A stretch of 58,851 nucleotides of DNA, taken from positions 1-58,851 of the forward strand of contig PCXL01000011.1 of assembly GCA_002787695.1 (NCBI GenBank). The letters are read 5' to 3'. The notes below the pieces were generated by a model. That model did not search any database. It saw only the letters and a list, made by a program, of their open reading frames with translations, and had not been told where the DNA came from. Of the stretch, positions 7,623 through 52,678 are shown piece after piece (positions within the stretch are counted from its first letter, which is position 1; each line of letters starts with the position of its first letter). The position numbers were made by a program, and so were the translations under genes. This DNA is from Candidatus Zambryskibacteria bacterium CG10_big_fil_rev_8_21_14_0_10_42_12 (GTDB lineage: Bacteria; Patescibacteriota; Minisyncoccia; Phycocordibacterales; 1-14-0-10-42-12).

Positions 7623-8441
7623 CTACCTTGTGTTGCCGGCCCCGTTTTGAACGAGTACAAGATTTCTCCTGTTGCTTCGTTCGGTCTTATGATCGCGATG
7701 TTGACTGTAAAGAAAGCCATCACCACAGGCAATCGTGCAGATTTTATTGCATGCTACACGATTGGTATCTCCTCCCGCTTCAGCGAAGAGTTGTCTGATG
7801 AGCGAATAGAGAGCGACGGACTTAAAGTTGTCAGTGCCCTCATACTTTGTCAGAAACCTCCTCAATTCGGGATGCGTTTTCTCTTGCAATTCATACGGCA
7901 AGTTGTGGGCACCGGCCGTAATGAAGGCCTGAAGTGTCGCAGGATCTGCTCCCAGCGCATTGATGAGATTGTCTACAACTCCTCGTGCAAGTGACAAGAG
8001 ACCGCAGTGGACAACACCGAGTCGTTTGCGGCTTGGGTCCCACACGAGTAATGTGGGACAGTCTGCTGAGCTAAGAGCGAAGGTCTGTCCTCTTTCAAGG
8101 ATGAGCCCGTCTGCCATAACTGGCGGATTGCCTCTCCACAGTCTGAATGGGTGATCTTCATGCAAACGGTATCCCTTGGTAAGCAGGGATTGGTTTGGTG
8201 TTACGAGCCCGTTAAACGTTGAGGGATTTGGAGCAAAGGCATCGGTGATGCCTCGTTCTGACGCGAGTCTCGAGAGGTGCCATAAACGTTGCGCGCAAAT
8301 TCCGGGATCACCGTGGGGACTGATCGCTTTGAAACTCCAGTCCAAATTCTCCTTATCTTGAAGGGCGCGAGGCCCAAAGAGTGAAGTGGTTACACCGCCA
8401 AAGAGTCGAAGCTCTTCGACAGGTGTGTATTGTTTGTGCAT
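7623..8441 (-). CDS. pgeF: YfiH/PgeF (laccase-domain) family protein, divergent
   Basis: ADGLIL, SADCPTLL, VHCG (HAG variant), CTIAC...YSQHR, RNL. The ORF-track TTG at 8480 coincides with the -35 box, so ATG 8441 is preferred. Confidence 0.75.
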   Translation of the reverse strand: MHKQYTPVEELRLFGGVTTSLFGPRALQDKENLDWSFKAISPHGDPGICAQRLWHLSRLASERGITDAFAPNPSTFNGLVTPNQSLLTKGYRLHEDHPFRLWRGNPPVMADGLILERGQTFALSSADCPTLLVWDPSRKRLGVVHCGLLSLARGVVDNLINALGADPATLQAFITAGAHNLPYELQEKTHPELRRFLTKYEGTDNFKSVALYSLIRQLFAEAGGDTNRVACNKICTIACGDGFLYSQHRDHKTERSNRRNLVLVQNGAGNTR

Positions 8442-8451
8442 TCCGTCAAAT

Positions 8452-8480
8452 ACGGTAATACAAATAATTAATACTGTCAA
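8452..8480 (-). promoter_or_regulatory. Sigma70-type promoter of pgeF
   Basis: TTGACA (8480-8475)-17 nt-TACCGT (8457-8452), 10 nt before ATG 8441. Confidence 0.55.
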
Positions 8481-9239
8481 TCAAAAGAGTCTTTTATCTT
8501 CTTTAAAACGATCAATATTGTCTACCACATGGTGCTCATCGTTGCGGCTTATGGTGCGCAGGTGTTTTATGTCTGTATTCCAGATATTACCGTCCCAAAA
8601 TTCAAGTGAATCAAAATTAGTTTTATACAACGCCTTGTCGCCATATACAGTACCGATGTAATAGTGTGTCTTGCCGGCTGACTGTGCTTCACGTATGCAG
8701 TCGAGCATAATCCAAAGCCCTAATGATTCATACGCATATATTAAATCGTAAAATGAGTACCAATAGTGTGACATGATTCCATCATCAATTTCTAGTGCAT
8801 AACCAACGATGTTCTGTGTATCTTTGTGCGTATAGGTGATCACAAAAATTGGGAAACCAGATGCAAGAATCGTCGAGAATCTTTCTTTAGGCATAACGTG
8901 TGGCCCGTGTCGTTTTGCAAAATATTCAATACAGAAAGAAATAAATTGATTGTTTGTATAATCAAAATCTGCAAGTGGAGTTTTGGAGCGTACAAGTTGT
9001 CCATCAAATTTTTTGGCGACACGCCGATTTTCACTATTTGGCGAAAATTTTTCTAAATTAACTCGTGCACTCCTCGCCATATAAAGTGTTTGTTTGATAT
9101 CAGAAGATCCGGTGTATGGTAAAAAACCTTGTTGGTATATATCTGACAAATTATCTCCATCTTCATAGATTGCATAATCACAGTAACCAAATGAGTATGA
9201 TGTATATGAATGAACAAATTCACTTTTAAAAATCTTCAT
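8481..9239 (-). CDS. Arginyl-tRNA-protein transferase / Bpt-like (ATE_N + ATE_C, GNAT fold) protein
   Basis: YSFYD...SLGLWIML..I..A...G...YYIG.......YK..F..LE matches the ATE_C/Bpt pattern; QQGF...RV....F.P...NRR..KK matches ATE_N. ATG 9239 overlaps the upstream ligase end. Confidence 0.7.
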   Translation of the reverse strand: MKIFKSEFVHSYTSYSFGYCDYAIYEDGDNLSDIYQQGFLPYTGSSDIKQTLYMARSARVNLEKFSPNSENRRVAKKFDGQLVRSKTPLADFDYTNNQFISFCIEYFAKRHGPHVMPKERFSTILASGFPIFVITYTHKDTQNIVGYALEIDDGIMSHYWYSFYDLIYAYESLGLWIMLDCIREAQSAGKTHYYIGTVYGDKALYKTNFDSLEFWDGNIWNTDIKHLRTISRNDEHHVVDNIDRFKEDKRLF

Positions 9240-10722: not shown

Positions 10723-11250
10723 ATGATTACTAAAACACGACTTCAATTCCTCGCCGCATTATTTCTAGTAGCACTTCCATTTTTAGGTATACCAGCATGG
10801 CTTGATACGATTCTTGTTTCGGCAAGCGGTCTTTTTATTGCGTTCACTACATTTTTGACTGCACGTGAAAGAAGGTTGCGAAGAAGAACTGCAAACATGA
10901 TTGATGCCCCAAAAGAGGTAGATGTTGCTGTTGCATTTGAAAAAAGACCGGCTGAAGCAGTGATAGCTAAACCAAAACGAACACGTAAAAAAAGTGTGAA
11001 GGAAGTCGTACAGCAAGACACAGCTCCCGTTGAACCAGTTTTAACACCGACTCCTGAAGTCGTTGAAGTGCATACACCTGAAGTACAACCAGAACCAGAA
11101 GTAGTACAACCAGAACCGGAACCAGAAGAGAATACATATGGCAATGAGCCGGTGCCATCTCCGATAGACCCACATACGATGATAAAGAAAGTTTCTCGAA
11201 GAAGAGTTAAAACTCCTGTTCTTGTTAATGACACAGAAGATACGGAATAA
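10723..11250 (+). CDS. Membrane protein with two N-terminal TM helices and a Pro/Glu-rich tail
   Basis: Hydrophobic N-terminus, then EP/VQPEPE low-complexity region; ATG 10723 lies 7 nt after TATAAT. Confidence 0.8.
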   Translation: MITKTRLQFLAALFLVALPFLGIPAWLDTILVSASGLFIAFTTFLTARERRLRRRTANMIDAPKEVDVAVAFEKRPAEAVIAKPKRTRKKSVKEVVQQDTAPVEPVLTPTPEVVEVHTPEVQPEPEVVQPEPEPEENTYGNEPVPSPIDPHTMIKKVSRRRVKTPVLVNDTEDTE

Positions 11251-11252
11251 AC

Positions 11253-12551
11253 ATGGCGCGTAAACCTCTATCTCGTACAGGTGTTTTTGTGATAAGCACC
11301 TTTGGGGTTTTACTTATTGCATTTGTAATTTACACAGTTCCCAAGTTATCTCAATTTACCTACGAATCAATTGATGTTGCGGGACTAGAGGAAGAAATGG
11401 TCTCAGAAGTAGATGTAATAAAAAAGAATGTATATAAAGCAAAACATCTAAAAACCCCCGATGCGGTGAAGGCAATTTATATGACAAGTTGGATTGCGGG
11501 CACGCCGTCTTTGCGGCAATCTCGTGTTATTGATGTGATTGATACAACAGAGATCAACAGTGTGGTAATTGATATTAAAGATGATACGGGTAAAATTTCA
11601 TTTATTACGGATGACCCGATGATTGAAGAACTTGGTTGGTCCGAGAATCGTGTGGCAGACATGAAAGATCTTATTGAAATGCTTCATGAGAAAGATATTT
11701 ACGTGATCGGACGACTGGCTGTGTTCCAAGATCCCTATATGACAAAAACGCGACCGGATCTTGCAGCAAAGTTTGCAAGTGATCCAACGAAAGTTTGGAC
11801 AGACAGAAAGGGGCTTTCGTGGATTGATCCGGGCGCTAAGGAATATTGGGATATGATTGCACGCATCGCGTTTGCTGCGCATCGCATAGGCTTTGATGAA
11901 ATAAATTTTGATTACATACGGTTTCCGTCAGACGGTAATGTGGACGATATTTATTATCCGTTTAGTGGCAATCGTATACTTGCATCCTCTTTTCATATGG
12001 AGAAGGCGAGAATTATCCAAGAGTTTTGGAAATATTTGTATGACGAAGTGCGGAATGGAAAAGACCCTATTACGGGAGACAAGTTTGAAGGGAAAATTTC
12101 AGCCGATATTTTTGGCATGACCACGACTGCGAGTGATGATATGCGGATTGGGCAAGTGTTTGAATATGCACTTCCGTATTTTGATTATATTGCACCGATG
12201 GTGTATCCGTCACATTATCCGACAGGCTTTTACGGAATTACTAATGTAAACGCTGTTCCCGGCACAGTGATATCTATTTCAATGGGTGAGGCGGTGCGTA
12301 GAGTGGAAGCGACAAGTACGATTCATTTGTTACCAGGCGAATCACAGATTGCATCTTCTACTTTGTTTACTAAAAAGTCATATGACAGAAACAAGCTACG
12401 TCCATGGCTGCAGGACAATGATTATCCGGTTCATTACACAGCCGAGATGGTCCGTGCACAGATAGATGCAAGCGAAGCACTTGGACTGAACTCTTGGATG
12501 CTCTGGGATCCTGCAAATACATATACAATTTCTGCGTTATTACCAGAATAG
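11253..12551 (+). CDS. Putative glycoside hydrolase, DUF4015 family, membrane-anchored
   Basis: KAIYMT, VIDIKDDTG, GFDEINFDYIRFP, SADIFG, PMVYPSHY, LRPWLQD, WMLWDPANTY. Confidence 0.85.
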   Translation: MARKPLSRTGVFVISTFGVLLIAFVIYTVPKLSQFTYESIDVAGLEEEMVSEVDVIKKNVYKAKHLKTPDAVKAIYMTSWIAGTPSLRQSRVIDVIDTTEINSVVIDIKDDTGKISFITDDPMIEELGWSENRVADMKDLIEMLHEKDIYVIGRLAVFQDPYMTKTRPDLAAKFASDPTKVWTDRKGLSWIDPGAKEYWDMIARIAFAAHRIGFDEINFDYIRFPSDGNVDDIYYPFSGNRILASSFHMEKARIIQEFWKYLYDEVRNGKDPITGDKFEGKISADIFGMTTTASDDMRIGQVFEYALPYFDYIAPMVYPSHYPTGFYGITNVNAVPGTVISISMGEAVRRVEATSTIHLLPGESQIASSTLFTKKSYDRNKLRPWLQDNDYPVHYTAEMVRAQIDASEALGLNSWMLWDPANTYTISALLPE

Positions 12552-17051: not shown

Positions 17052-18164
17052 ATGGAACGTATAACTGTACTTTCAATCGGTTCAGATAGAATGATGGCGG
17101 ATGTTAATAGTCGTGTTGCAGAGAGAGCACGGTTGTACGGAAAGGCATTTCATAAGATGTACACTATTGTTTTTTCGTTGAAACAACACCATACTCCGCA
17201 ACAGGTATCTTTAGGCAAAAATATAGAACTATTTTTTACAAATTCTAATCATCGTTCGTCTTATATTTTTGATGCTCTTCATATTGCAAAAAAAATAATA
17301 CAACAATCACAAAACAATACGTTAGTGATTTCGACGCAAGATCCATTTGAAGCTGGATTGGTGGGACTACTCCTTTCAAAAAAATTTAATATTCCTTTGC
17401 ATGTACAAATACATACAGATATTGGCAGTACTTTTTTTCGTACCCAGTCTATTCTCAACAGAGTAAGATTGTTTATAGCGCGTTTTGTATTGAAACAGGC
17501 AAAGGGTGTGCGAGTAGTCTCACCAGGTATCAAAAAATATCTTGTTGAGACATATGGTATGTCTGAATCCCAGATAACCGTGTTGCCTATTACTGGCAAT
17601 TTTCAGCCCATGCCTCGCCATGAGCCAACGGAGTATTACGTTTTAATGGTGTCTCGTTTGGAAAAAGAAAAACGTATTGATCGAGCACTTCAGATTTTTA
17701 AAGAAGTTCTCGTAAAGAAACCAGACCTCATACTTAAAATTGCTGGCAAGGGCAGGGAGGAGAAAAAACTCAAACAATTAGTGAAGAAGATTGGAATTGA
17801 AAATAATGTGCAGTTTCTTGGTGACGTACAAGATGTAGCGTTGCTGTATGCGCAGGCATCTTGTTTATTACATGCGGCAGCCTATGAGGGATTTGGTATG
17901 GTGCTGTATGAAGCAATGCAGACAGGGTGCCCTATTGTAACCACGCGGGTTGGTATTGCGTCGGATCTCCAAGAGAAACATTACGACATTACTGTTTGTG
18001 ATCTTAAGGATACAGATAAAATGTCACGGGCGATCGAATTTTATGCGAGTGAATTTAAGAAAAGTCATCCAGTCAATCTTGAATTTGTGGCTTCGGATAA
18101 GGATATATACATTAAGCACTATGTACAGTCTATCTGCCAAGCTTTAGGTACCAAGCTGGTATAA
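17052..18164 (+). CDS. Glycosyltransferase family 4
   Basis: SRLEKEK, AGKG, YEGFGMVLYEAMQTGCPIVTT. Confidence 0.9.
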   Translation: MERITVLSIGSDRMMADVNSRVAERARLYGKAFHKMYTIVFSLKQHHTPQQVSLGKNIELFFTNSNHRSSYIFDALHIAKKIIQQSQNNTLVISTQDPFEAGLVGLLLSKKFNIPLHVQIHTDIGSTFFRTQSILNRVRLFIARFVLKQAKGVRVVSPGIKKYLVETYGMSESQITVLPITGNFQPMPRHEPTEYYVLMVSRLEKEKRIDRALQIFKEVLVKKPDLILKIAGKGREEKKLKQLVKKIGIENNVQFLGDVQDVALLYAQASCLLHAAAYEGFGMVLYEAMQTGCPIVTTRVGIASDLQEKHYDITVCDLKDTDKMSRAIEFYASEFKKSHPVNLEFVASDKDIYIKHYVQSICQALGTKLV

Positions 18165-41371: not shown

Positions 41372-41617
41372 TCAATTTTCGTAGTCGAGGTGGCGTATAG
41401 GCAACTTGCGCGCCTCGTTTCTTTTATTGGTAGTGTTCTTGTTAAATTCAAGATCCTCAGCAATCTTCATGAGGTCAGAAACTTTGTAGACCCTGTAGTT
41501 ATTCATCGGGTGTCTTGTGGTCGGGAACTTACCAGATTTGTCCCAATTGCGAAGGGTAAGTGGGGTTACGCCGAGGATCTCTGCTGCTTTTTTTATTGTC
41601 ACAAATTGCTCATTCAT
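41372..41617 (-). CDS. MerR/excisionase-type HTH protein, 81 aa
   Basis: VTIKKAAEILGVTPLTLRNWDKSG...R...NNYRVY. Confidence 0.88.
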   Translation of the reverse strand: MNEQFVTIKKAAEILGVTPLTLRNWDKSGKFPTTRHPMNNYRVYKVSDLMKIAEDLEFNKNTTNKRNEARKLPIRHLDYEN

Positions 41618-41627
41618 AATATATAAA

Positions 41628-41708
41628 CCTATATAAACATTACTATTATCATACCAAAACATTGATATTAAACATGTGTATAAGTATATAGGATTAGTAA
41701 TGTTTATA
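41628..41708. promoter_or_regulatory. Inverted-repeat operator-like array upstream of the MerR-HTH gene
   Basis: TATAAACATTACTA (41632-41645)/TAGTAATGTTTATA (41695-41708); CCTATATA (41628-41635)/TATATAGG (41685-41692). Confidence 0.45.
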
Positions 41709-41954
41709 CATACATATGTGTTATCATCTCACGTTACATACCCTCTGCATGTTACTATTGTTCGTGTGTCACATGTTCATTTTAGATTAGGTATGAGAGT
41801 GGACCTTTAAAGATATGCAGGTGGAATGGCTTATTTTGTGCGTATATATTTTTGAACAATTTAGTTACGAATACTCTATGGAAAAACAAAGTACATGATT
41901 GAAGGTGAGATTCAGCGTACCCATATTGACCGCTAATAAAAGAAGAATAAATCT

Positions 41955-41972
41955 TACAAGGGTGCCCCTTGT
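41955..41972 (+). repeat. REP-like palindrome, copy A
   Basis: TACAAGGGTGCCCCTTGT, identical to the first 18 nt of the copies beside the RAYT gene. Confidence 0.8.
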
Positions 41973-42156
41973 TCTGGCTCTAAAATTTTACCAAGCGCTG
42001 GTAAGTGGTTAATTTATTTGTTATTTGTACAGTTTGTCCCTTGTATTACCCGAGACGAGATGTCTTTAATTATCCACATGTATTTGTATACCACTGTTCT
42101 TGCACGAGCGTATACTTATATACAAGTGGTTACTAACATGTGGAGACCTGCTAGTG

Positions 42157-45100
42157 ATGTCTGAACAATCTTTTGATCTAAATAATAAATTCATAACCTC
42201 GAGAGAAGCGGCACAACATGCCGGCTATTCAAACGACTACATTGGTCAGTTGTGTCGTGAAGGAAGAGTGGATGCAAAAAAAGTTGGTAAGATTTGGTCT
42301 GTATCTAAAAGCTCACTTGATGAGTATCTTGATTCAGAGAGAAGTAAAGTTCTGGAATCTAAAACAACTCTGACTGGTTCCCGAGATGTTGCCATACATA
42401 ATGACATCTCGGATGCCGAGATATCCAACAAGTCATTTTCATACAGGTCTGTCTCTCATGCGAACATACCAATTTTGAATGATCAGCGAGATGCGTATCG
42501 TGATCAATATAAGAGGGATGACTTAGAGAAACATACTAATAATACGAATACTTCATTTTTTGCTTCTCGTGTCGCTCCTGTTATTTTAGGAATTACATTT
42601 GTAAGTGCTGGACTGGCTTATGCGTACGACATGAAAGGTTGGGGATCTGTCATCAGTTTCCTAGGAGAGGCAGGAAGTGATCGAATCGTGTATGACGCTG
42701 TGTCACTTAAAACTATTGAGCCGAAAAGTGTATTAACGCGAGTTTCTGAGAAAGTATCACGGATGGATGATTATGTGTATCAACGATTTGATGACGGGAA
42801 GACATCTTTATTGTTGGCACAGGCAAACATGGACTCAAATGTATTTGATACATTTGCACAATATGTCTATCGTTCTATAAACAGTGTCGTATGTCTTTTT
42901 TGGTGTGACCGAGAACATGAACAGGAGAATGTTATTGTTGAGGATGATCGAAAAGATGAGGCGCTCGTACGTGAGCCTCTTAATATTTCAAACCAACATG
43001 GTGTAGTATCGATTCAGACGGTGGTTCAGTCGGAGAGAGTGATCGAGCGCGTGACCGAACCCGTATTTATATCGCAGGGCACCATTACGCGCGAAGAGTT
43101 TGAGGCACGACTCGGCGCTCTGCAGTCAGAGGTCAAAACAATCCCGCGATATGCAGATTCTCCAACAGGTAGTAGTGGCGGTGGCTCTGTTGTCTATCGT
43201 GATGCAGGTGCAAATAATTATGGCTTGAATGGCGATCAAATCACTATTCCCGGAAATCTTTATGCAAACGGTAATTCATATTTTGATACCGATACACTCG
43301 TAGTAGATGATACAAATAGAAAAGTGGGTATCGGGACGACTAGTCCGTTTGCGAAGTTTAGTATTGCAGGTGATTTGGTCTTGACTGGTAAATTCTACGA
43401 TGCCAATAGTTCAGCAGGTACTAATGGCTTTGTACTCCGGACAACAGGTACAACAACAGAATGGGTTGCAGTCGGAGATCTCGGTATTTCGCAAACATTT
43501 ACAGGCCTTACTGACACGCTCTCGTCTTTGACGGCTAGTCGAATTATTTATACGAGTGCGGATGGAACAACTCTCACCGACTCTGCAAACTTTGTCTTTG
43601 ACGGAACCAATCTGGGAGTTGGTACAACAACACCAGGATACAGGGTTGGCATCGGTGGCACACTTGGCGTAACGGGTACAACCAACCTTGCAACCACAAC
43701 CATTACAGGACTCCTCACTGTAAACGGCAACACCAACATCACCGAAGGTGGCGAACTCACTGTGGGAGACAAAGTGATTTCCGAAGGCGAGATCGGTGCC
43801 GGCACCTCAACGCCGGCTGCAAAGCTCGCGGTGCAAAATACACTGACCGACCAAACTGCGTCACTTATCTATGGTGCAGTTGGCCAAACGGCGCCTCTCT
43901 TTGATGTCTTTGATAATCCAACAATTAATGCAAATCTATTTCGTATAACGGCTGATGGTAAAGTGGGCGTTGGTACGACGAGTCCGTTTGCTAAATTTGC
44001 GATCAGAGGAGATGGTACGAGTACTGGATTGAATTTTCAAACAACAAATGTGAATCATACGCCTTTGTTTACTATTTTGGATAACGGAAGAGTTGGTATA
44101 AATAATAGTAGCCCTGCGTATCCACTTGATGTAACTGGGGAAATTAGGACTACTGACGATATTCAATTTACCGGTGCGGCTGGTGTGGGTATGAAATATT
44201 TTAATGCAAGCATTACATTTAGTAATTCAAATGGGTCTATAACATTAAATCCTCATCTGGGTAATACACTGTTTAGTGCAGGTAATGTGGGTATCGGTAC
44301 TACCTCTCCATACGCAAAACTTTCTGTTGTGGGGGATATTGTAGGTTCTTATTTTAATGCCACTTCCTCTACAGGTTATCAATTGGGTGGTTCAACCATT
44401 TTAACCGCATCAACGTCGAATAATTCTCTATTCATAGGTTCTAATGCTGGATTAAATATGCTTTCTACAGGAACTGGTAATATTGGTATTGGTTTAAATG
44501 CCTTGTATACAAATACTACTGGTGATTATTCTGTTGCAATCGGAAATAGTGCATTGCGGTTGGCACTGACTGCACAAAGAAATGTGGCTATTGGGTATGA
44601 GGCAATGGAATCAACAACAGGGAGTAGTAATACGGCGGTTGGTTATAATGTACTAAAAGCAAATACAACTGGAAGCGAAAATGTTGCTATAGGAGAGAAT
44701 GCTATGTCTCTTAGTACTGCATCACAAAATACAGCAGTCGGTTATCAGTCCCTCATTCAGTCTGCAAATTCTGGTAATAGTGCCTTTGGTCATAGTACAT
44801 TATTTAGTAATACAAGTGGACAACAAAATATAGCAATTGGTTTTCAAGCAGGTTATGGTGTTAGTACGGGCAATAGGAACATTCTAGTTGGTTATCAGGC
44901 AGGGGTAACGGGTGGAAGTCTTACAACAGGTTCTAATAATATTTTGATTGGTCACCAAGCCGGTGCAACATCTAGTACTATGACAAATGGTTTAAATATT
45001 GGAAATTTAATTTATGGAACAGGGTTGGGCGGGACAGGTACCACACTATCTACAGGTAATATCGGCATTGGCACCACCTCACCTGGATATAAATTACATG

Positions 45101-46104
45101 TATACGTTGGCACAGACACCGATGTCGCAGGCTTCACTGATAGTAATGGCACCTGTACGATTAATCCGACAAGTACTGCGCTCTCTTGCTCATCAGACAG
45201 AACTCTTAAAAAGGATATTTCATCTCTTGATCCAGTTACGATGCTCCAGAATGTCGTAGCACTCAATGCGGTTAATTATCACTGGAAGACAGAAGACTCT
45301 GGCAATCCGCTCCGTCTCGGCTTTATTGCACAAGAAGTTGAAAAAGTATTTCCAGAGTTCGTCACTATCGGACCAAACGGTAAAAAAGCAGTCTCTTACG
45401 GTTCTTTCACTCCGGTGCTTGCAAGTGCTATTCAAGCTATCTATAAGGATATTTATGAGATGGAGCCTGTTAATACAAAAGGTCAGTCGACATTACTCGG
45501 AAGACTGTTGCAGTACTTTGAAAATGCTGGCGTGAAAATTGCTAATGGTCTTACGACAATTAAGGATTTGGTAGCACACAAACTTACCGTCGGTACGAGT
45601 GATAAGCCAACGGGCATCACCTTGTATGATGAAGTGTCTGGTAATCCGTACTGTCTTGTTATAAGAAGTGGACAACCGACTACATATGCTGGCGAATGTG
45701 GAACAGGAGCGCAAACTGTTGCTGTTGCAAACTCTGGCAGTAGTCCTGCGGCGAGTGATGCTGGTACTGAGAATAGCACTGGTGAAGAAATTATTGATGT
45801 AGAACAGCAGGGAGATATGGCTACAAGTACAGAAGATATTGTTGAAGAAGCAACTGAAGAAAATAATAATGAAGCGGTGACTGATGGCACACAAACCGTA
45901 GTGGAAGAATCATCAGACGAAGAGGTAAGTGAGCCAGATGTGCAACAAGAAGCAGTTGTAGCTCCTGCAGAACCAGAAGAGTCAGTAGAGGAGACCTCTC
46001 CACCAGAGCCAGAAAATACTGAGCCAAACGTTGAGGAACCACAACAATCAGCATCTTCTAGCGAAGATTCAACTTCTGAACCGTTTGTAGGTGACGCTTC
46101 ATAA
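42157..46104 (+). CDS. Large membrane-anchored fibre/adhesin-like protein: HTH - TM - beta-repeats - peptidase S74 chaperone - acidic tail
   Basis: FITSREAAQHAGYSNDYIGQLCREG..DAKKVGKIWSV (excisionase-like HTH); TM VAPVILGITFVSAGLAYAY; seven xGxGTTSP-type repeats; about 11 NxAxGxxA repeats; SSDRTLKKDI...LGFIAQEVEKVFPEFV (S74). ATG 42157 preferred to 42100. Confidence 0.88.
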   Translation: MSEQSFDLNNKFITSREAAQHAGYSNDYIGQLCREGRVDAKKVGKIWSVSKSSLDEYLDSERSKVLESKTTLTGSRDVAIHNDISDAEISNKSFSYRSVSHANIPILNDQRDAYRDQYKRDDLEKHTNNTNTSFFASRVAPVILGITFVSAGLAYAYDMKGWGSVISFLGEAGSDRIVYDAVSLKTIEPKSVLTRVSEKVSRMDDYVYQRFDDGKTSLLLAQANMDSNVFDTFAQYVYRSINSVVCLFWCDREHEQENVIVEDDRKDEALVREPLNISNQHGVVSIQTVVQSERVIERVTEPVFISQGTITREEFEARLGALQSEVKTIPRYADSPTGSSGGGSVVYRDAGANNYGLNGDQITIPGNLYANGNSYFDTDTLVVDDTNRKVGIGTTSPFAKFSIAGDLVLTGKFYDANSSAGTNGFVLRTTGTTTEWVAVGDLGISQTFTGLTDTLSSLTASRIIYTSADGTTLTDSANFVFDGTNLGVGTTTPGYRVGIGGTLGVTGTTNLATTTITGLLTVNGNTNITEGGELTVGDKVISEGEIGAGTSTPAAKLAVQNTLTDQTASLIYGAVGQTAPLFDVFDNPTINANLFRITADGKVGVGTTSPFAKFAIRGDGTSTGLNFQTTNVNHTPLFTILDNGRVGINNSSPAYPLDVTGEIRTTDDIQFTGAAGVGMKYFNASITFSNSNGSITLNPHLGNTLFSAGNVGIGTTSPYAKLSVVGDIVGSYFNATSSTGYQLGGSTILTASTSNNSLFIGSNAGLNMLSTGTGNIGIGLNALYTNTTGDYSVAIGNSALRLALTAQRNVAIGYEAMESTTGSSNTAVGYNVLKANTTGSENVAIGENAMSLSTASQNTAVGYQSLIQSANSGNSAFGHSTLFSNTSGQQNIAIGFQAGYGVSTGNRNILVGYQAGVTGGSLTTGSNNILIGHQAGATSSTMTNGLNIGNLIYGTGLGGTGTTLSTGNIGIGTTSPGYKLHVYVGTDTDVAGFTDSNGTCTINPTSTALSCSSDRTLKKDISSLDPVTMLQNVVALNAVNYHWKTEDSGNPLRLGFIAQEVEKVFPEFVTIGPNGKKAVSYGSFTPVLASAIQAIYKDIYEMEPVNTKGQSTLLGRLLQYFENAGVKIANGLTTIKDLVAHKLTVGTSDKPTGITLYDEVSGNPYCLVIRSGQPTTYAGECGTGAQTVAVANSGSSPAASDAGTENSTGEEIIDVEQQGDMATSTEDIVEEATEENNNEAVTDGTQTVVEESSDEEVSEPDVQQEAVVAPAEPEESVEETSPPEPENTEPNVEEPQQSASSSEDSTSEPFVGDAS

Positions 46105-46142
46105 AACAAAAAAGAACACTCGTGCAAGTTTGCCTATAAACC

Positions 46143-46205
46143 TACAAGGGGCACCCTTGTAATTTTGTAAACCTTTATATTACCCCTACAAGGGTGCCCC
46201 TTGTA
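46143..46205. repeat. REP doublet (REPIN-like): two inverted copies
   Basis: TACAAGGGGCACCCTTGTA (46143-46161) is the reverse complement of TACAAGGGTGCCCCTTGTA (46187-46205). Confidence 0.85.
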
Positions 46206-46237
46206 GGGCTTTTATCTCATGATATGATTTGAATATT

Positions 46238-46885
46238 ATGCATGCGCGTGATTATAAGCAGTTTGCACCAAACGAGTTTTACCATATTTACAATCGCGGT
46301 GTTGGTAAAATGAATATTTTTCTAGACGATGAGGATTACAATTTTTTTCTTACTCGACTCAAAGAGAACTTGTTTCCTAGTAGCATAAGTATGTCTAATA
46401 AAATAAGGAGAAAACTTTTGCCGGCAGGCTCATTTGATTTGGTTTGTTATTGTTTGATGCCAAATCATTTTCATCTTTTGTTTTTTCAAAAGACAGAGGT
46501 GTCAATTAGTGCGTTAATGTTGAAAGTTATGACGGGGTATGTGATCTATTTCAATAAAAAATATGATCGCGTCGGCTCGCTATTTCAAGATCAATTCAAA
46601 GCGGTATGTGTAAAATCTGACGAACAACTTTTATGGCTTTCTGCATATATTCACACAAATCCATCAGTTGCGCAGCTAGTATCTGATGATATGCAATATG
46701 CGTGGAGTAGTCTGAGGGAGTATATAACAAAAGATAGGGGTATGTGTGTGACAGATCATATACTGCAGTCATATCGTTCTCCGGCATACTACAAAAAACT
46801 GATGATGGAGGCAAAGAAGGTTATTTATGGAAATAAGAAAGATAAGGCGAGCACATCAGCTTTAGGGGCAGTGTTTGATCTGTAA
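46238..46885 (+). CDS. REP-associated tyrosine transposase (RAYT, IS200/IS605 Y1 HUH family)
   Basis: FYHIYNRGV, IFLDDEDY, YCLMPNHFHLL (HUH), YFNKKY.R.G.LFQ, YIHTNP (catalytic Tyr), YAWSS..EY; flanked by REP palindromes. Confidence 0.92.
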   Translation: MHARDYKQFAPNEFYHIYNRGVGKMNIFLDDEDYNFFLTRLKENLFPSSISMSNKIRRKLLPAGSFDLVCYCLMPNHFHLLFFQKTEVSISALMLKVMTGYVIYFNKKYDRVGSLFQDQFKAVCVKSDEQLLWLSAYIHTNPSVAQLVSDDMQYAWSSLREYITKDRGMCVTDHILQSYRSPAYYKKLMMEAKKVIYGNKKDKASTSALGAVFDL

Positions 46886-46905
46886 CTTTGAGAGATATAC
46901 CAATT

Positions 46906-46924
46906 TACAAGGGTGCCCCTTGTA
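46906..46924 (+). repeat. REP-like palindrome downstream of RAYT
   Basis: TACAAGGGTGCCCCTTGTA followed by short TGTAAA repeats. Confidence 0.85.
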
Positions 46925-46984
46925 AACTTGTAAAGTGTAAAACAATATCAAAAAGACACCGCGTATACAGTGTCTTTTTGATAT

Positions 46985-47410
46985 TGTTGCTTGTAAGCCG
47001 AATTCTGTACCCAGCACCACTTTTGTATTCGAGCACACTTAACTCGATGTATACTCAACTTACAAAAGTGGTGCTGGGCGATAGTCATATATCTGGTCCC
47101 TCAATTGCTTTCGGGATCAAGCGGCTCTCTCCAAAAATGGAGCACGGCCTTGCACTCGGGTAAGGATTTTGCCGTTTCACTCCCTCACATGCGCGCATGT
47201 GAGGGGCTACGCCATCATTAAACGCGTGGCGTCCTAATTTATTTCTAAATCAGGCGTCTCTGCTCGCACCTCTTCGCCACACTTTCAAAAAGTGTGGCGA
47301 GACGGGTGTTACCCGCTACCTGTACCCAGCACCACTCTGTGACAGAGTGGTGCTGGGTAGAGTGTTCGGACTTTCCTCCCAGCTGTAAGGCTGGGCGACT
47401 ATCCAGCTAT
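46985..47410 (-). ncRNA. rnpB: RNase P RNA with palindromic expansions
   Basis: On the minus strand: GGATAGTCGCC, GAGGAAAGTCC (P4), GGGTAACACCC, GTGAAACGGC, GAGTGCAAGG, AGATATATGACT, ACAGAATTCGGCTTA. Ends approximate. Confidence 0.93.
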
Positions 47411-47544: not shown

Positions 47545-49212
47545 ATGGTAGAAAGAATAGGAAAATTATTTGCAAGCAAGGTTAGCAGTCTGCATACAGC
47601 GGCGTATATCATGGGTGCCTTTACCATCGTATCTTCTCTGTTGGCACTTGTTCGCGATAGGCTACTCGCATCTTCATTTGGTGCGGGTTCAGAGCTTGAT
47701 ATGTACTATGCTGCATTTCGTATTCCCGATCTATTGTTTGTATCTGTTGGGTCATTAGTTTCTGTCTCAGTCTTGATCCCGCTATTGGCAAAACGAGAAA
47801 AGGAAGCGGTAGACGGGGGGGAAGCTTTTGAACTTTCTAAGGCGACTACATTTTTCGCAGTGATTATCAGTGTGTCATCAGTACTACTATTTGTTGTGTT
47901 GCCATATGTTGTTCCAGTTGTTTTTATCGGTTTTGATATGGAACTACAAGGTGAAGTAGTCCGTCTCTCCCGATGGCTACTGCTTTCTCCGATTATCCTC
48001 GGTTTCTCAAATGTCTTCGGATCTGTTACTCAATTGCAAAATAGATTTGTGTTGTATGCGTTGAGTCCGGTGCTATACAATGTTGGAATAATTATCGGTA
48101 TCATTTTTCTTGCACCACTTTCCGGTATTACCGGAGTAGTGTACGGAGTAATTATCGGTGCACTGCTACACCTGTTACCGCAAGCTCTATATGTCTACAA
48201 AGTAAAATTGTGGCCTCGAATCGTGCGTATTTCATGGGTATATGCAAAATCACTTGCTGCTCTTTCTGCGTCACGCACCATTGCACTTTCTCTATCTCAT
48301 CTTGTCTTACTGCTACTTGTTGCGATCGCGAGTTCTTTAGCGGCTGGGACGATTGCCGTCTTTACATTTTCATATAATTTACAGTCTGTATTTGTGGGCG
48401 TTATTGGTGTGAGCTATTCACTCGCTGCTTTTTCAGCACTCTCTAAATTGGTAGCCGATAACGATTGGGATGAATACAAAAGAGAATTAACATCCTCCTT
48501 TAGGCAGTTGCTTTTTTGGTCAATTCCAGCAGCCGTACTCTTGATCATCCTTCGAGCTCAGATTGTCCGTACAGTTCTTGGTGGAGGAATGTTTAGTTGG
48601 GCAGACACTCGTTTGACTGCAGCAGCGCTTGCTATATTTGCAATTGCAACTATTTTCCAAAGCGCGAGCCTCCTTTTTACCAGAGCGTTTTATGCGCAGG
48701 GCGAAACAAAAAAACCGTTGATCGCTCATGTCACAGGTTCTGGTATTGCCATTATTCTCGGTGTCTTGTTTTTACGTATGAGTCCAGAGGGTTTTTTGGA
48801 GACAATGTCATATCTACTAAAGATAACTGATCTCGATCCGCACGTGTTACTTCTGCCAACTGCATTTGCTATTGGCTCATTGGTAACCGTGATATTGCTT
48901 GCTATCCCACTTTTTGTAAAAAAACTTGTTGGTGTATCCCTCCGTTTTGTAGCAGAAGTTGTGGGTGGCAGTCTTACCATGGGTGCAGTTGCATATATTG
49001 GTCTTATAATTTTTGAACCACTACTCGGAACCGATACGCTTGTTGGTATTTTCTCACAAGGGCTTTTTGCAGGACTATTGGGAATAATGAGTGGTATAGG
49101 TTTTCTGTGGGTGATTGGCAATACAGATGTTCGAGATGCAATATTCTTCCTAACACCAAAACGAGAAAAAGTAGACTTGCCAGCAACTGATGTGAGCGAG
49201 ATGGCGCCTTAG
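47545..49212 (+). CDS. murJ: Lipid II flippase MurJ (MviN)
   Basis: LALVRDRLLAS.FGAG..LD.Y.AAFRIPD, TRAFYA....KKP; multi-TM. Confidence 0.93.
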   Translation: MVERIGKLFASKVSSLHTAAYIMGAFTIVSSLLALVRDRLLASSFGAGSELDMYYAAFRIPDLLFVSVGSLVSVSVLIPLLAKREKEAVDGGEAFELSKATTFFAVIISVSSVLLFVVLPYVVPVVFIGFDMELQGEVVRLSRWLLLSPIILGFSNVFGSVTQLQNRFVLYALSPVLYNVGIIIGIIFLAPLSGITGVVYGVIIGALLHLLPQALYVYKVKLWPRIVRISWVYAKSLAALSASRTIALSLSHLVLLLLVAIASSLAAGTIAVFTFSYNLQSVFVGVIGVSYSLAAFSALSKLVADNDWDEYKRELTSSFRQLLFWSIPAAVLLIILRAQIVRTVLGGGMFSWADTRLTAAALAIFAIATIFQSASLLFTRAFYAQGETKKPLIAHVTGSGIAIILGVLFLRMSPEGFLETMSYLLKITDLDPHVLLLPTAFAIGSLVTVILLAIPLFVKKLVGVSLRFVAEVVGGSLTMGAVAYIGLIIFEPLLGTDTLVGIFSQGLFAGLLGIMSGIGFLWVIGNTDVRDAIFFLTPKREKVDLPATDVSEMAP

Positions 49213-52636: not shown

Positions 52637-52678
52637 AACCAAAAATTGTCTGGAATTAATTCCAGACAATTTTTGGTT
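52637..52678. terminator. Perfect 42-bp palindrome, bidirectional terminator
   Basis: AACCAAAAATTGTCTGGAATT/AATTCCAGACAATTTTTGGTT, abutting the hsp20 stop. Confidence 0.7.

Follow-up and report, generated by a model that had tools for sequence, protein, structure and literature searches.

A probable REPtron beside a large fibre gene in a Patescibacteria contig: a RAYT-type gene and its putative cognate hairpins

TnpA-REP of Escherichia coli (also called RAYT, for REP-associated tyrosine transposase, or YafM; PDB 4ER8; Messing et al. 2012, PMC3479197) is a Y1 HUH (histidine-hydrophobic residue-histidine) enzyme whose gene is flanked by its own repetitive extragenic palindromic (REP) hairpins, an arrangement called a REPtron. 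The REPIN-RAYT systems of Pseudomonas (REPIN, REP doublet forming a hairpin; Bertels and Rainey 2011, PMC3116915; Bertels et al. 2017, PMC5581495) combine inverted REP doublets beside the RAYT gene with others dispersed elsewhere. The same catalytic fold is found in TnpA of the insertion sequences (IS) IS200, IS608 and ISDra2 (PDB 2A6O, 2XM3, 2F4F), and palindromes lying in frame inside genes are described as Rickettsia palindromic elements (RPEs) and intragenic REPs (Di Nocera et al. 2013, PMC3733652). We analyzed a locus related to these systems on contig PCXL01000011.1 of an ultra-small groundwater bacterium, Candidatus Zambryskibacteria bacterium CG10_big_fil_rev_8_21_14_0_10_42_12 (58,851 nt; hereafter the window, meaning this whole stretch of DNA), in which a RAYT-type gene follows a large fibre gene and four copies of one REP, named REP1 to REP4, are distributed around the two genes (Table 1). 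The best explanation, to which we assign a probability of about 0.75, is that the locus is an ordinary REPtron in which the RAYT gene at 46238-46885 is bracketed by its cognate 19-nt REP, the copy at 41955 is a stray, and the fibre gene is a resident neighbour.

Like E. coli TnpA-REP, the window RAYT displays a Y1 HUH fold with the HUH and YIxxNP...W.(F/Y)SS motifs, has its own REP hairpins on both sides of the gene, and is present as one copy in the readable data. The two proteins nevertheless share only ~11% sequence identity, the window RAYT is ~50 aa longer and has a C-terminal helical extension, and its REP, unlike that of E. coli, consists of a short, perfectly paired 8-bp stem and a 3-nt loop, has no unpaired GTAG and resides in a host from the candidate phyla radiation (CPR). 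Inverted REP doublets beside the RAYT and others dispersed in other genomes, closest homologues in conserved synteny, and co-divergence of REP and RAYT are all reminiscent of Pseudomonas REPIN-RAYT systems, from which the present one differs by far fewer copies (a handful of sites per metagenome-assembled genome, MAG, by exact 19-mer count), by the many copies found in frame within genes, and by the occurrence of the same REP in several CPR lineages. The resemblance to IS200, IS608 and ISDra2 extends from the catalytic fold of TnpA (ranks 7-38 of our fold search) to the subterminal REP3 and REP4 hairpins, which point alike around the gene, and to REP4 itself, whose position ~15 nt from an indel edge resembles the right end of IS608; in contrast with these elements, we found neither multiple identical copies nor evidence of recent movement, the RAYT-type C-terminal motif is present, and there is no tnpB. 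As for the Rickettsia RPEs and intragenic REPs, the window's REP occurs as a doublet in frame inside genes of related MAGs, but these copies are confined to relatives and the window contains no intragenic copy.

An earlier sequence-only reading of the window had identified the gene as a RAYT with cognate REPs, and this identification was confirmed by the motifs, the Pfam match, the fold match to 4ER8 and the flanking hairpins. The protein scored 34.4 bits against Pfam Y1_Tnp, above the cutoff of 23, and 43.3 bits against NCBIfam REP_Tyr_transpos (NF047646), below the equivalog cutoff of 80; it is a distant relative of the proteobacterial enzyme and no equivalog. Both catalytic motifs, HUH (YCLMPNHFHL) and Tyr (Y-I/V-H-x-N-P), show no variation among 18 homologues. 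A profile built on them returned 4ER8 as its sole PDB match, with both motifs aligned and a weak E-value (0.36). This alignment pairs YIHENPKKAKLVEDLEKYKYSSY with YIYINPVKHGWVKQVSDWPFSTF and so contains the RAYT-type C-terminal motif, defined as YIxxNP..lV....W.(F/Y)SS after the Tyr, that separates RAYTs from IS200 TnpA. The AlphaFold (AF2) model of the protein (predicted local distance difference test, pLDDT, 84; predicted template modelling score, pTM, 0.82) also retrieved 4ER8 first in a fold search (E 1.8e-5, target TM 0.70), followed by TnpA of ISDra2, IS200 and IS608. With more than 7,400 homologues, the RAYT is part of a large Patescibacteria family; several members are labelled RayT or transposase from Patescibacteria, and the nearest is 58% identical. 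The window holds one RAYT copy, and an identical protein is encoded on five contigs of other assemblies, in one genomic context only. Separately, a phage origin of the RAYT was considered and rejected, as no relative was found in IMG/VR viral contigs and GenBank phages yielded one match, 23.6% identical.

The REP was searched in the whole window as TACAAGGG-NNN-CCCTTGTA with at most 2 mismatches, and 100 shuffles served as control. The 19-nt sequence TACAAGGG-TGC-CCCTTGTA gave exactly 4 matches in 58,851 nt and none in the shuffles, in agreement with the earlier account of copies at 41955(+), 46143(-), 46187(+) and 46906(+) and nowhere else in the window. Relaxing the search to an edit distance of 4 or less over the 58.8 kb added only two weak matches, at 17921 and 42028, the second of which may, on weak sequence evidence, be a decayed partner of REP1. 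The RAYT gene is flanked on both sides by this palindromic repeat, with a doublet (REP2 and REP3, 46141-46208) upstream and REP4 downstream. As single-stranded DNA (ssDNA), a single unit forms an 8-bp stem and a 3-nt loop, the stems of REP1 and REP3 being of 7 and 11 bp, respectively. REP1, 184 nt ahead of the fibre ATG, folds as DNA with -5.7 kcal/mol (z = -2.9). REP2 and REP3 together constitute a REPIN-like inverted doublet of 21 bp (21/21 complementary) with a 25-nt spacer, for which the folding energy reaches -25.5 kcal/mol (z = -7.5). REP2 is followed by ATTTTGT, which gives it the look of a terminator on the + strand; REP3 is followed by CTTTTAT and ends 29 nt before the RAYT ATG. A TTGTAG in REP3 was considered as the -35 box of a RAYT promoter and dropped, with 3/6 positions matching and no call by the scan.

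Two further remarks of the earlier account concerned the form of the repeat. The lack of the usual external GTAG layout was borne out in 44 aligned REP copies from several genomes, in which an unpaired GTAG tag shows no conservation; GTA falls inside the stem, which is lengthened by TA...TA, and G comes next in only 17 of the 44 copies. RAYT genes with flanking repeats devoid of a GTAG tag have been described (Di Nocera et al. 2013, PMC3733652), so the missing tag weakens the fit to the classic REP and not to the RAYT kind. The statement that REP1 is inverted relative to REP2 needs a caveat: their loop orientations are opposite and they are complementary at 19/19 positions as inverted repeats, yet they are also identical at 15/19 positions as direct repeats, because the unit is itself palindromic and its orientation is set by the 3 loop bases only.

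Table 1. Positions of the features discussed, in the window except where a locus is named
Feature	Position	Strand	Description
merR-like helix-turn-helix (HTH) gene	41372-41662	-	96 aa; Pfam MerR 8.8e-11; left neighbour
Extra segment	~41720-46939		~5.2 kb without counterpart in nearest relatives; REP1, fibre gene, REP2/REP3, RAYT, REP4
REP1	41955-41973	+	Solo; TGC loop; 7-bp stem, last stem base T for A
Possible decayed REP partner	42028-42045		TACAGTTTGTCCCTTGTA; 3 substitutions and 1 deletion versus consensus; 55 nt past REP1
Fibre gene	42157-46104	+	1315 aa; N-terminal HTH_17/excisionase-like domain; hydrophobic helix
REP2	46141-46161 (19-mer 46143-46161)	-	GCA loop, opposite orientation; begins 37 nt past fibre stop
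REP3	46184-46208 (19-mer 46187-46205)	+	TGC loop; stem lengthened to 11 bp, CCCTACAAGGG/CCCTTGTAGGG
RAYT-type Y1 HUH gene	46238-46885	+	215 aa; HUH is HFH in YCLMPNHFHL; catalytic Tyr in YIHTNP
REP4	46906-46924	+	TGC loop; begins 20 nt past RAYT stop; -9.1 kcal/mol, z = -4.5
Hairpin	46941-46988		Perfect, 19 bp, -18 kcal/mol; past 3' end of RNase P RNA; right flank
RNase P RNA gene	46989-47410	-	Rfam RF00011 (class B); 66.3 bits versus gathering score 97; E 1.4e-17; full model length
Closest-homologue RAYT loci	L114 2695-3342; L115 3899-4558; L116 5095-5754; L117 2515-3174		hisS-RNaseH-like context

The pairing of this enzyme with this hairpin is supported by a survey of the family. Scanning of metagenome contigs provided 80 loci with RAYT homologues. 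In most of them the RAYT gene lies between two copies of a short hairpin with a perfect stem of 7-10 bp and a loop of 3-5 nt. The hairpin varies locus by locus, and at some loci a third copy lies within the RAYT gene. In a maximum-likelihood tree, the window protein belongs to a 15-member clade (support 100/99) that includes 4 of the 5 RAYTs located near the window's REP sequence, while the rest of the clade is associated with stem variants such as TACAAAGGG-CGC-CCCTTTGTA and AACAAAGG-TGC-CCTTTGTT. The three closest RAYT homologues (58-59% identical) are accompanied by ACAAGGATGACCCTTGT-type hairpin variants. Judged from these sequences, enzyme and hairpin co-diverge, which supports the view that they are a cognate pair.

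The same three homologues share one conserved context made up of hisS, a gene for a 192-aa RNase-H-like exonuclease and then the RAYT gene, with no fibre gene, from which it follows that the window's RAYT occupies a different site. This synteny suggests long vertical inheritance of the RAYT at the hisS site, and a conserved context is what is expected of vertically inherited, domesticated RAYTs (Bertels et al. 2017, PMC5581495). The survey points to a very large CPR family of RAYT-like proteins with co-evolving mini-hairpins that appears little described; our literature searches, which may be incomplete, found no description of RAYT/REP systems in Patescibacteria. We also observed, on one metagenome contig (L044), two RAYT paralogues ~40% identical to the query (8001-8591 and 11546-12121), in opposite orientation and 3 kb apart.

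Dispersed copies of the window's REP were found in other genomes. The exact 19-mer is present at 17 loci among GTDB species genomes, including 6 contigs in one MAG and 5 in another, mostly as inverted doublets far from any RAYT, and single sites exist in Taylorbacteria, Yanofskybacteria and other Patescibacteria MAGs. Inverted doublets with spacers of 0-5 nt make up most sites among the 17 loci, and only 2 of the 17 have a RAYT homologue. One locus (L014) carries a RAYT 47% identical to ours with REPs on both sides and another REP doublet 2.4 kb on, past gap-rpiB-rpe, a layout which indicates that REPs bracketing ordinary genes by happenstance occur elsewhere. In other Patescibacteria MAGs, many copies of this REP, mostly doublets, are read through in frame within genes for MurC, IleRS, MnmA, FemAB, PfkB, PGI and a PMT-family glycosyltransferase (L010 7573-7614 and L016 2601-2643; also L015, L005, L009, L011, L017 and L007), where they encode peptides such as KGHPCKGTRVPLV. 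An orthologous MurC insertion exists in two genomes with MurC proteins 81% identical to each other, and is thus old and tolerated. When the three intergenic spacers of the window were compared by blastn with all fetched loci, only the 19-23-nt REP itself was common to them and no larger shared element was detected. One REP sequence is hence common to several CPR lineages, and in-frame copies of it are tolerated in essential genes. As a side observation, one of the MAGs with this CPR REP (CAYHPG01; L003, L006, L008, L009 and L016) is labelled 'uncultured Gammaproteobacteria'. The REP also occurs in an unclassified 'bacterium' MAG, the MurC proteins of the two are 81% identical, and the former label looks doubtful.

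By analogy with E. coli TnpA-REP and IS200/IS608, the window RAYT would bind the folded REP hairpin on ssDNA, probably at the replication fork, and would cut and rejoin beside the hairpin, such that REP or REPIN units could be copied to new sites. Such local spread most likely left REP1 as a stray copy in the first intergenic spacer of some size farther upstream. The hairpins and the T-rich runs behind them probably also terminate transcription of the fibre gene and the RAYT. The elements of this mechanism that we observed are an intact Y1 HUH gene, RAYT-type motifs and fold, hairpins on two sides, co-divergence of enzyme and hairpin, and dispersed REPs in other genomes.

Comparison with relatives bears on the status of the fibre gene, which the sequence-only reading had suggested might be REP-bounded cargo captured by the RAYT. 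In the window, the local order is gatB, merR-like gene, fibre gene, RAYT, RNase P RNA gene, murJ and lepA, whereas the nearest relatives (L021-L026, GatB 78-79% identical) have secA ... gatB, merR, RNase P RNA, murJ and lepA, with no fibre gene, RAYT or REP. Using blastn and MAFFT against L021-L025, we located the end of homology near 41718-41722 and its return near 46940, at the hairpin after the RNase P RNA gene. The relatives' counterpart of this extra segment consists of ~20-25 nt that separate the merR promoter region from the rnpB terminator. Its edges do not coincide with REPs, the left one lying 235 nt before REP1 and the right one 15 nt after the end of REP4; because of the former distance, no REP delimits the missing segment on its left side. 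The stretch missing from these relatives (~41720-46939) contains the RAYT as well as the fibre gene.

A more distant relative (L110, GatB 65% identical) has neither RAYT nor REP. Its merR is followed directly, in the same orientation, by a gene (11016-11927) that shares 40% identity with the fibre protein in the N-terminal HTH domain (compared with window 42157-42400), and further on by a fibre-like gene (17313 onward) encoding more than 1,177 aa. In L112, two small open reading frames (ORFs) occupy the slot between merR and rnpB. By these comparisons the slot is a variable surface-gene site with contents differing per relative, and the fibre gene would most simply be a resident lost by the nearest relatives. 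The presence of a homologue without RAYT or REP in L110, together with the position of the left edge, the inclusion of the RAYT in the missing segment and the scatter of this REP in other genomes at a distance from RAYT genes, speaks against capture of the fibre gene as REP-bounded cargo. Our best reading is that it is a fast-evolving resident surface gene and a neighbour of the REPtron, on which no mark of cargo was found. The protein has no close homologue, its best matches being 30-51% identical over partial length (51% over 10% of the length at most). Besides the parts listed in Table 1, it comprises repeated GIGTTSP-type segments, a Peptidase_S74 intramolecular chaperone domain and an acidic tail. 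Its N-terminal HTH domain, cytoplasmic and MerR/excisionase-like, is found at the same chromosomal position in L110, beside a free-standing divergent merR-like gene.

Several points weigh against the interpretation of the locus as an ordinary REPtron. The activity of the REP in its own genome is only predicted. Copies of the REP are not abundant: the 58.8 kb contain 4, all within 5 kb, and REP1 alone lies outside the immediate flanks of the RAYT; the distribution in the window is explained by local clustering around the RAYT, not by genome-wide abundance. The nearness of REP1 to the RAYT is thus not a chance effect of high copy number, and it needs either local spread or shared origin. In addition, fibre gene and RAYT are jointly missing from the nearest relatives, the short distance from REP4 to the right indel edge gives a geometry like that of an IS200/IS605 right end, and REP1 and REP4 have the same loop orientation, like the left and right ends of an IS200/IS605 element.

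A last point of this kind came from ORF clustering in 83 RAYT loci, fibre-type genes being recognized by S74 or fibre-repeat homology. RAYT genes lie directly 3' of fibre-type genes far above chance, and 'mere neighbour' may be too weak a description of the fibre gene. A fibre-type gene is present within two genes of the RAYT in about 10 of the 83 loci; it directly precedes the RAYT, in the same direction, in 6 of the 65 loci with a readable upstream ORF and directly follows it in 0 of 64, against a background away from RAYT of less than 1% of ORFs. The adjacency is spread over several RAYT clades. At one locus (L041), the fibre-type gene also has an N-terminal MerR/HTH domain, and another (L031) repeats the window arrangement with the same REP, present as an in-frame copy in the fibre tail, a copy 7 nt past the stop and, beyond the RAYT, a further copy. 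Conversely, a RAYT was found beside none of the 3 fibre homologues examined, one of which is a marine phage tail fibre. The simplest reading of this adjacency is that both kinds of genes gather at the few permissive variable sites that such compact genomes offer, or that the unit prefers the terminator regions of long monocistronic genes. A functional tie of Patescibacteria RAYT/REP systems to fibre (adhesin-like) genes, through homing to their 3' ends or as a two-gene cassette aiding fibre gain, loss or turnover at variable chromosomal slots, strikes us as rather unlikely, although the counts above and the joint absence of fibre gene and RAYT from the nearest relatives are compatible with it. 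If functional, such an association would link an ssDNA transposase to the turnover of surface fibres probably used by these host-dependent bacteria for attachment.

An alternative that places less weight on mobility is that the present role of the hairpins is chiefly that of host terminators or insulators flanking a fibre gene under strong expression, with a RAYT that is domesticated or an idle relic and a clustering of REPs due to selection for termination. REP1 (on the minus strand), REP2 and REP3 indeed score as terminator-like with T-rich tails. The housekeeping context of the closest RAYT homologues is also what domestication would predict (PMC5581495). However, the same REP lies in frame inside housekeeping genes elsewhere, where a terminator role is impossible, and the catalytic motifs of the RAYT are intact and invariant. 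As the principal explanation we regard this as unlikely, although it is compatible with an ordinary REPtron and can hold alongside it.

Some of the points listed above would instead suit a single IS200/IS605-like unit running from REP1 to REP4, in which these two copies serve as subterminal hairpins at its left and right ends, on one strand, and the RAYT carries the 5 kb, with the fibre gene as passenger, as ssDNA. The shared TGC orientation of REP1 and REP4, the joint absence of fibre gene and RAYT from the nearest relatives, and the right edge just beyond REP4 are all consistent with such a unit, as is the recurrence of fibre-then-RAYT pairs with differing downstream neighbours, the window, L014, L031 and L032 falling in one RAYT clade. 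On the contrary, the left indel edge is much farther from REP1 than the ~20-40 nt expected, the homologous HTH/fibre gene of L110 occupies the same slot without RAYT or REP, and no REP precedes the fibre gene of L064, the only other fibre-RAYT locus with a readable upstream side. Furthermore, neither the RAYT nor the fibre gene has a second copy or another context, all three fibre homologues are devoid of an adjoining RAYT, and the three closest RAYT homologues reside in the hisS-RNaseH-like context without a fibre gene. Near-identical copies or presence/absence among strains, by which an autonomous IS200/IS605 element is recognized, were not observed: there is one context, the nearest homologue is 58% identical, and the strain assemblies are identical. 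We consider this alternative distinctly unlikely.

The sequence-only reading had also suggested inversion or shuffling of the fibre gene at REP1 and REP2. Two other assemblies (L018 and L019) extend across the fibre gene and include all four REPs; a third (L020) covers the RAYT, REP2 to REP4 and the 3' portion of the fibre gene. Each is collinear with the window, with an identity of 99.995-100%. No structural variant at the REP ends was thus seen in three other assemblies of the same strain, with the proviso that rare variants are invisible in assembled contigs. The six sequencing runs that hold the region were seen as Logan contigs of low depth, fragmented and breaking in conserved RAYT and RNase P stretches common to other community members. 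Positions 1-29 of L020 (ERZ27293414 k141_353999) read TCTTTCCCTACACGACGCTCTTCCGATCT, which we take to be an Illumina adapter and hence an assembly artefact rather than a junction. Phase or antigen variation by inversion between the 19-bp repeats REP1 and REP2, via the RAYT or homologous recombination, is very improbable: although the two repeats are fully complementary and bracket the fibre gene, and surface fibres are plausible targets of variation, the orientation is the same in the window and in both independent gene-spanning assemblies, the whole gene would move with its own upstream region so that no switch logic is apparent, the inverted character of a palindromic REP rests on 3 nt, 19 bp is short for RecA-driven recombination, and Y1 HUH enzymes, given the IS200/IS605 mechanism, are not known to flip double-stranded segments. 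Taken by itself, the locus is a routine REPtron, and the idea of a RAYT that captures or flips an adhesin gene does not hold up.

Regarding the host, the window includes a 16S rRNA gene, and the relatives of its GatB are named Taylorbacteria, Paceibacterota or Parcubacteria, names which indicate a Patescibacteria (CPR) bacterium. The sequencing runs containing this DNA are groundwater and aquifer metagenomes. The merR-like gene also follows gatB in L021-L026 and L110 and is therefore kept in relatives without the fibre gene and RAYT. On the other side of the extra segment, the hairpin at 46941-46988 is probably the terminator of the RNase P RNA gene, and a counterpart is present in relatives. 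The RNase P RNA gene contains long perfect hairpins on CCCAGCACCAC (47010-47078 and 47320-47362) that look like inserted palindromes. Farther on, a 94-nt tRNA-Met called by ARAGORN at 48338-48431, inside the murJ coding region, was not found by Rfam and is probably a false positive. Finally, a perfect 42-nt loopless palindrome (AACCAAAAATTGTCTGGAATT followed by AATTCCAGACAATTTTTGGTT) at 52637-52678, ~180 nt past a tRNA-Arg gene, may be a bidirectional terminator or a cruciform site.

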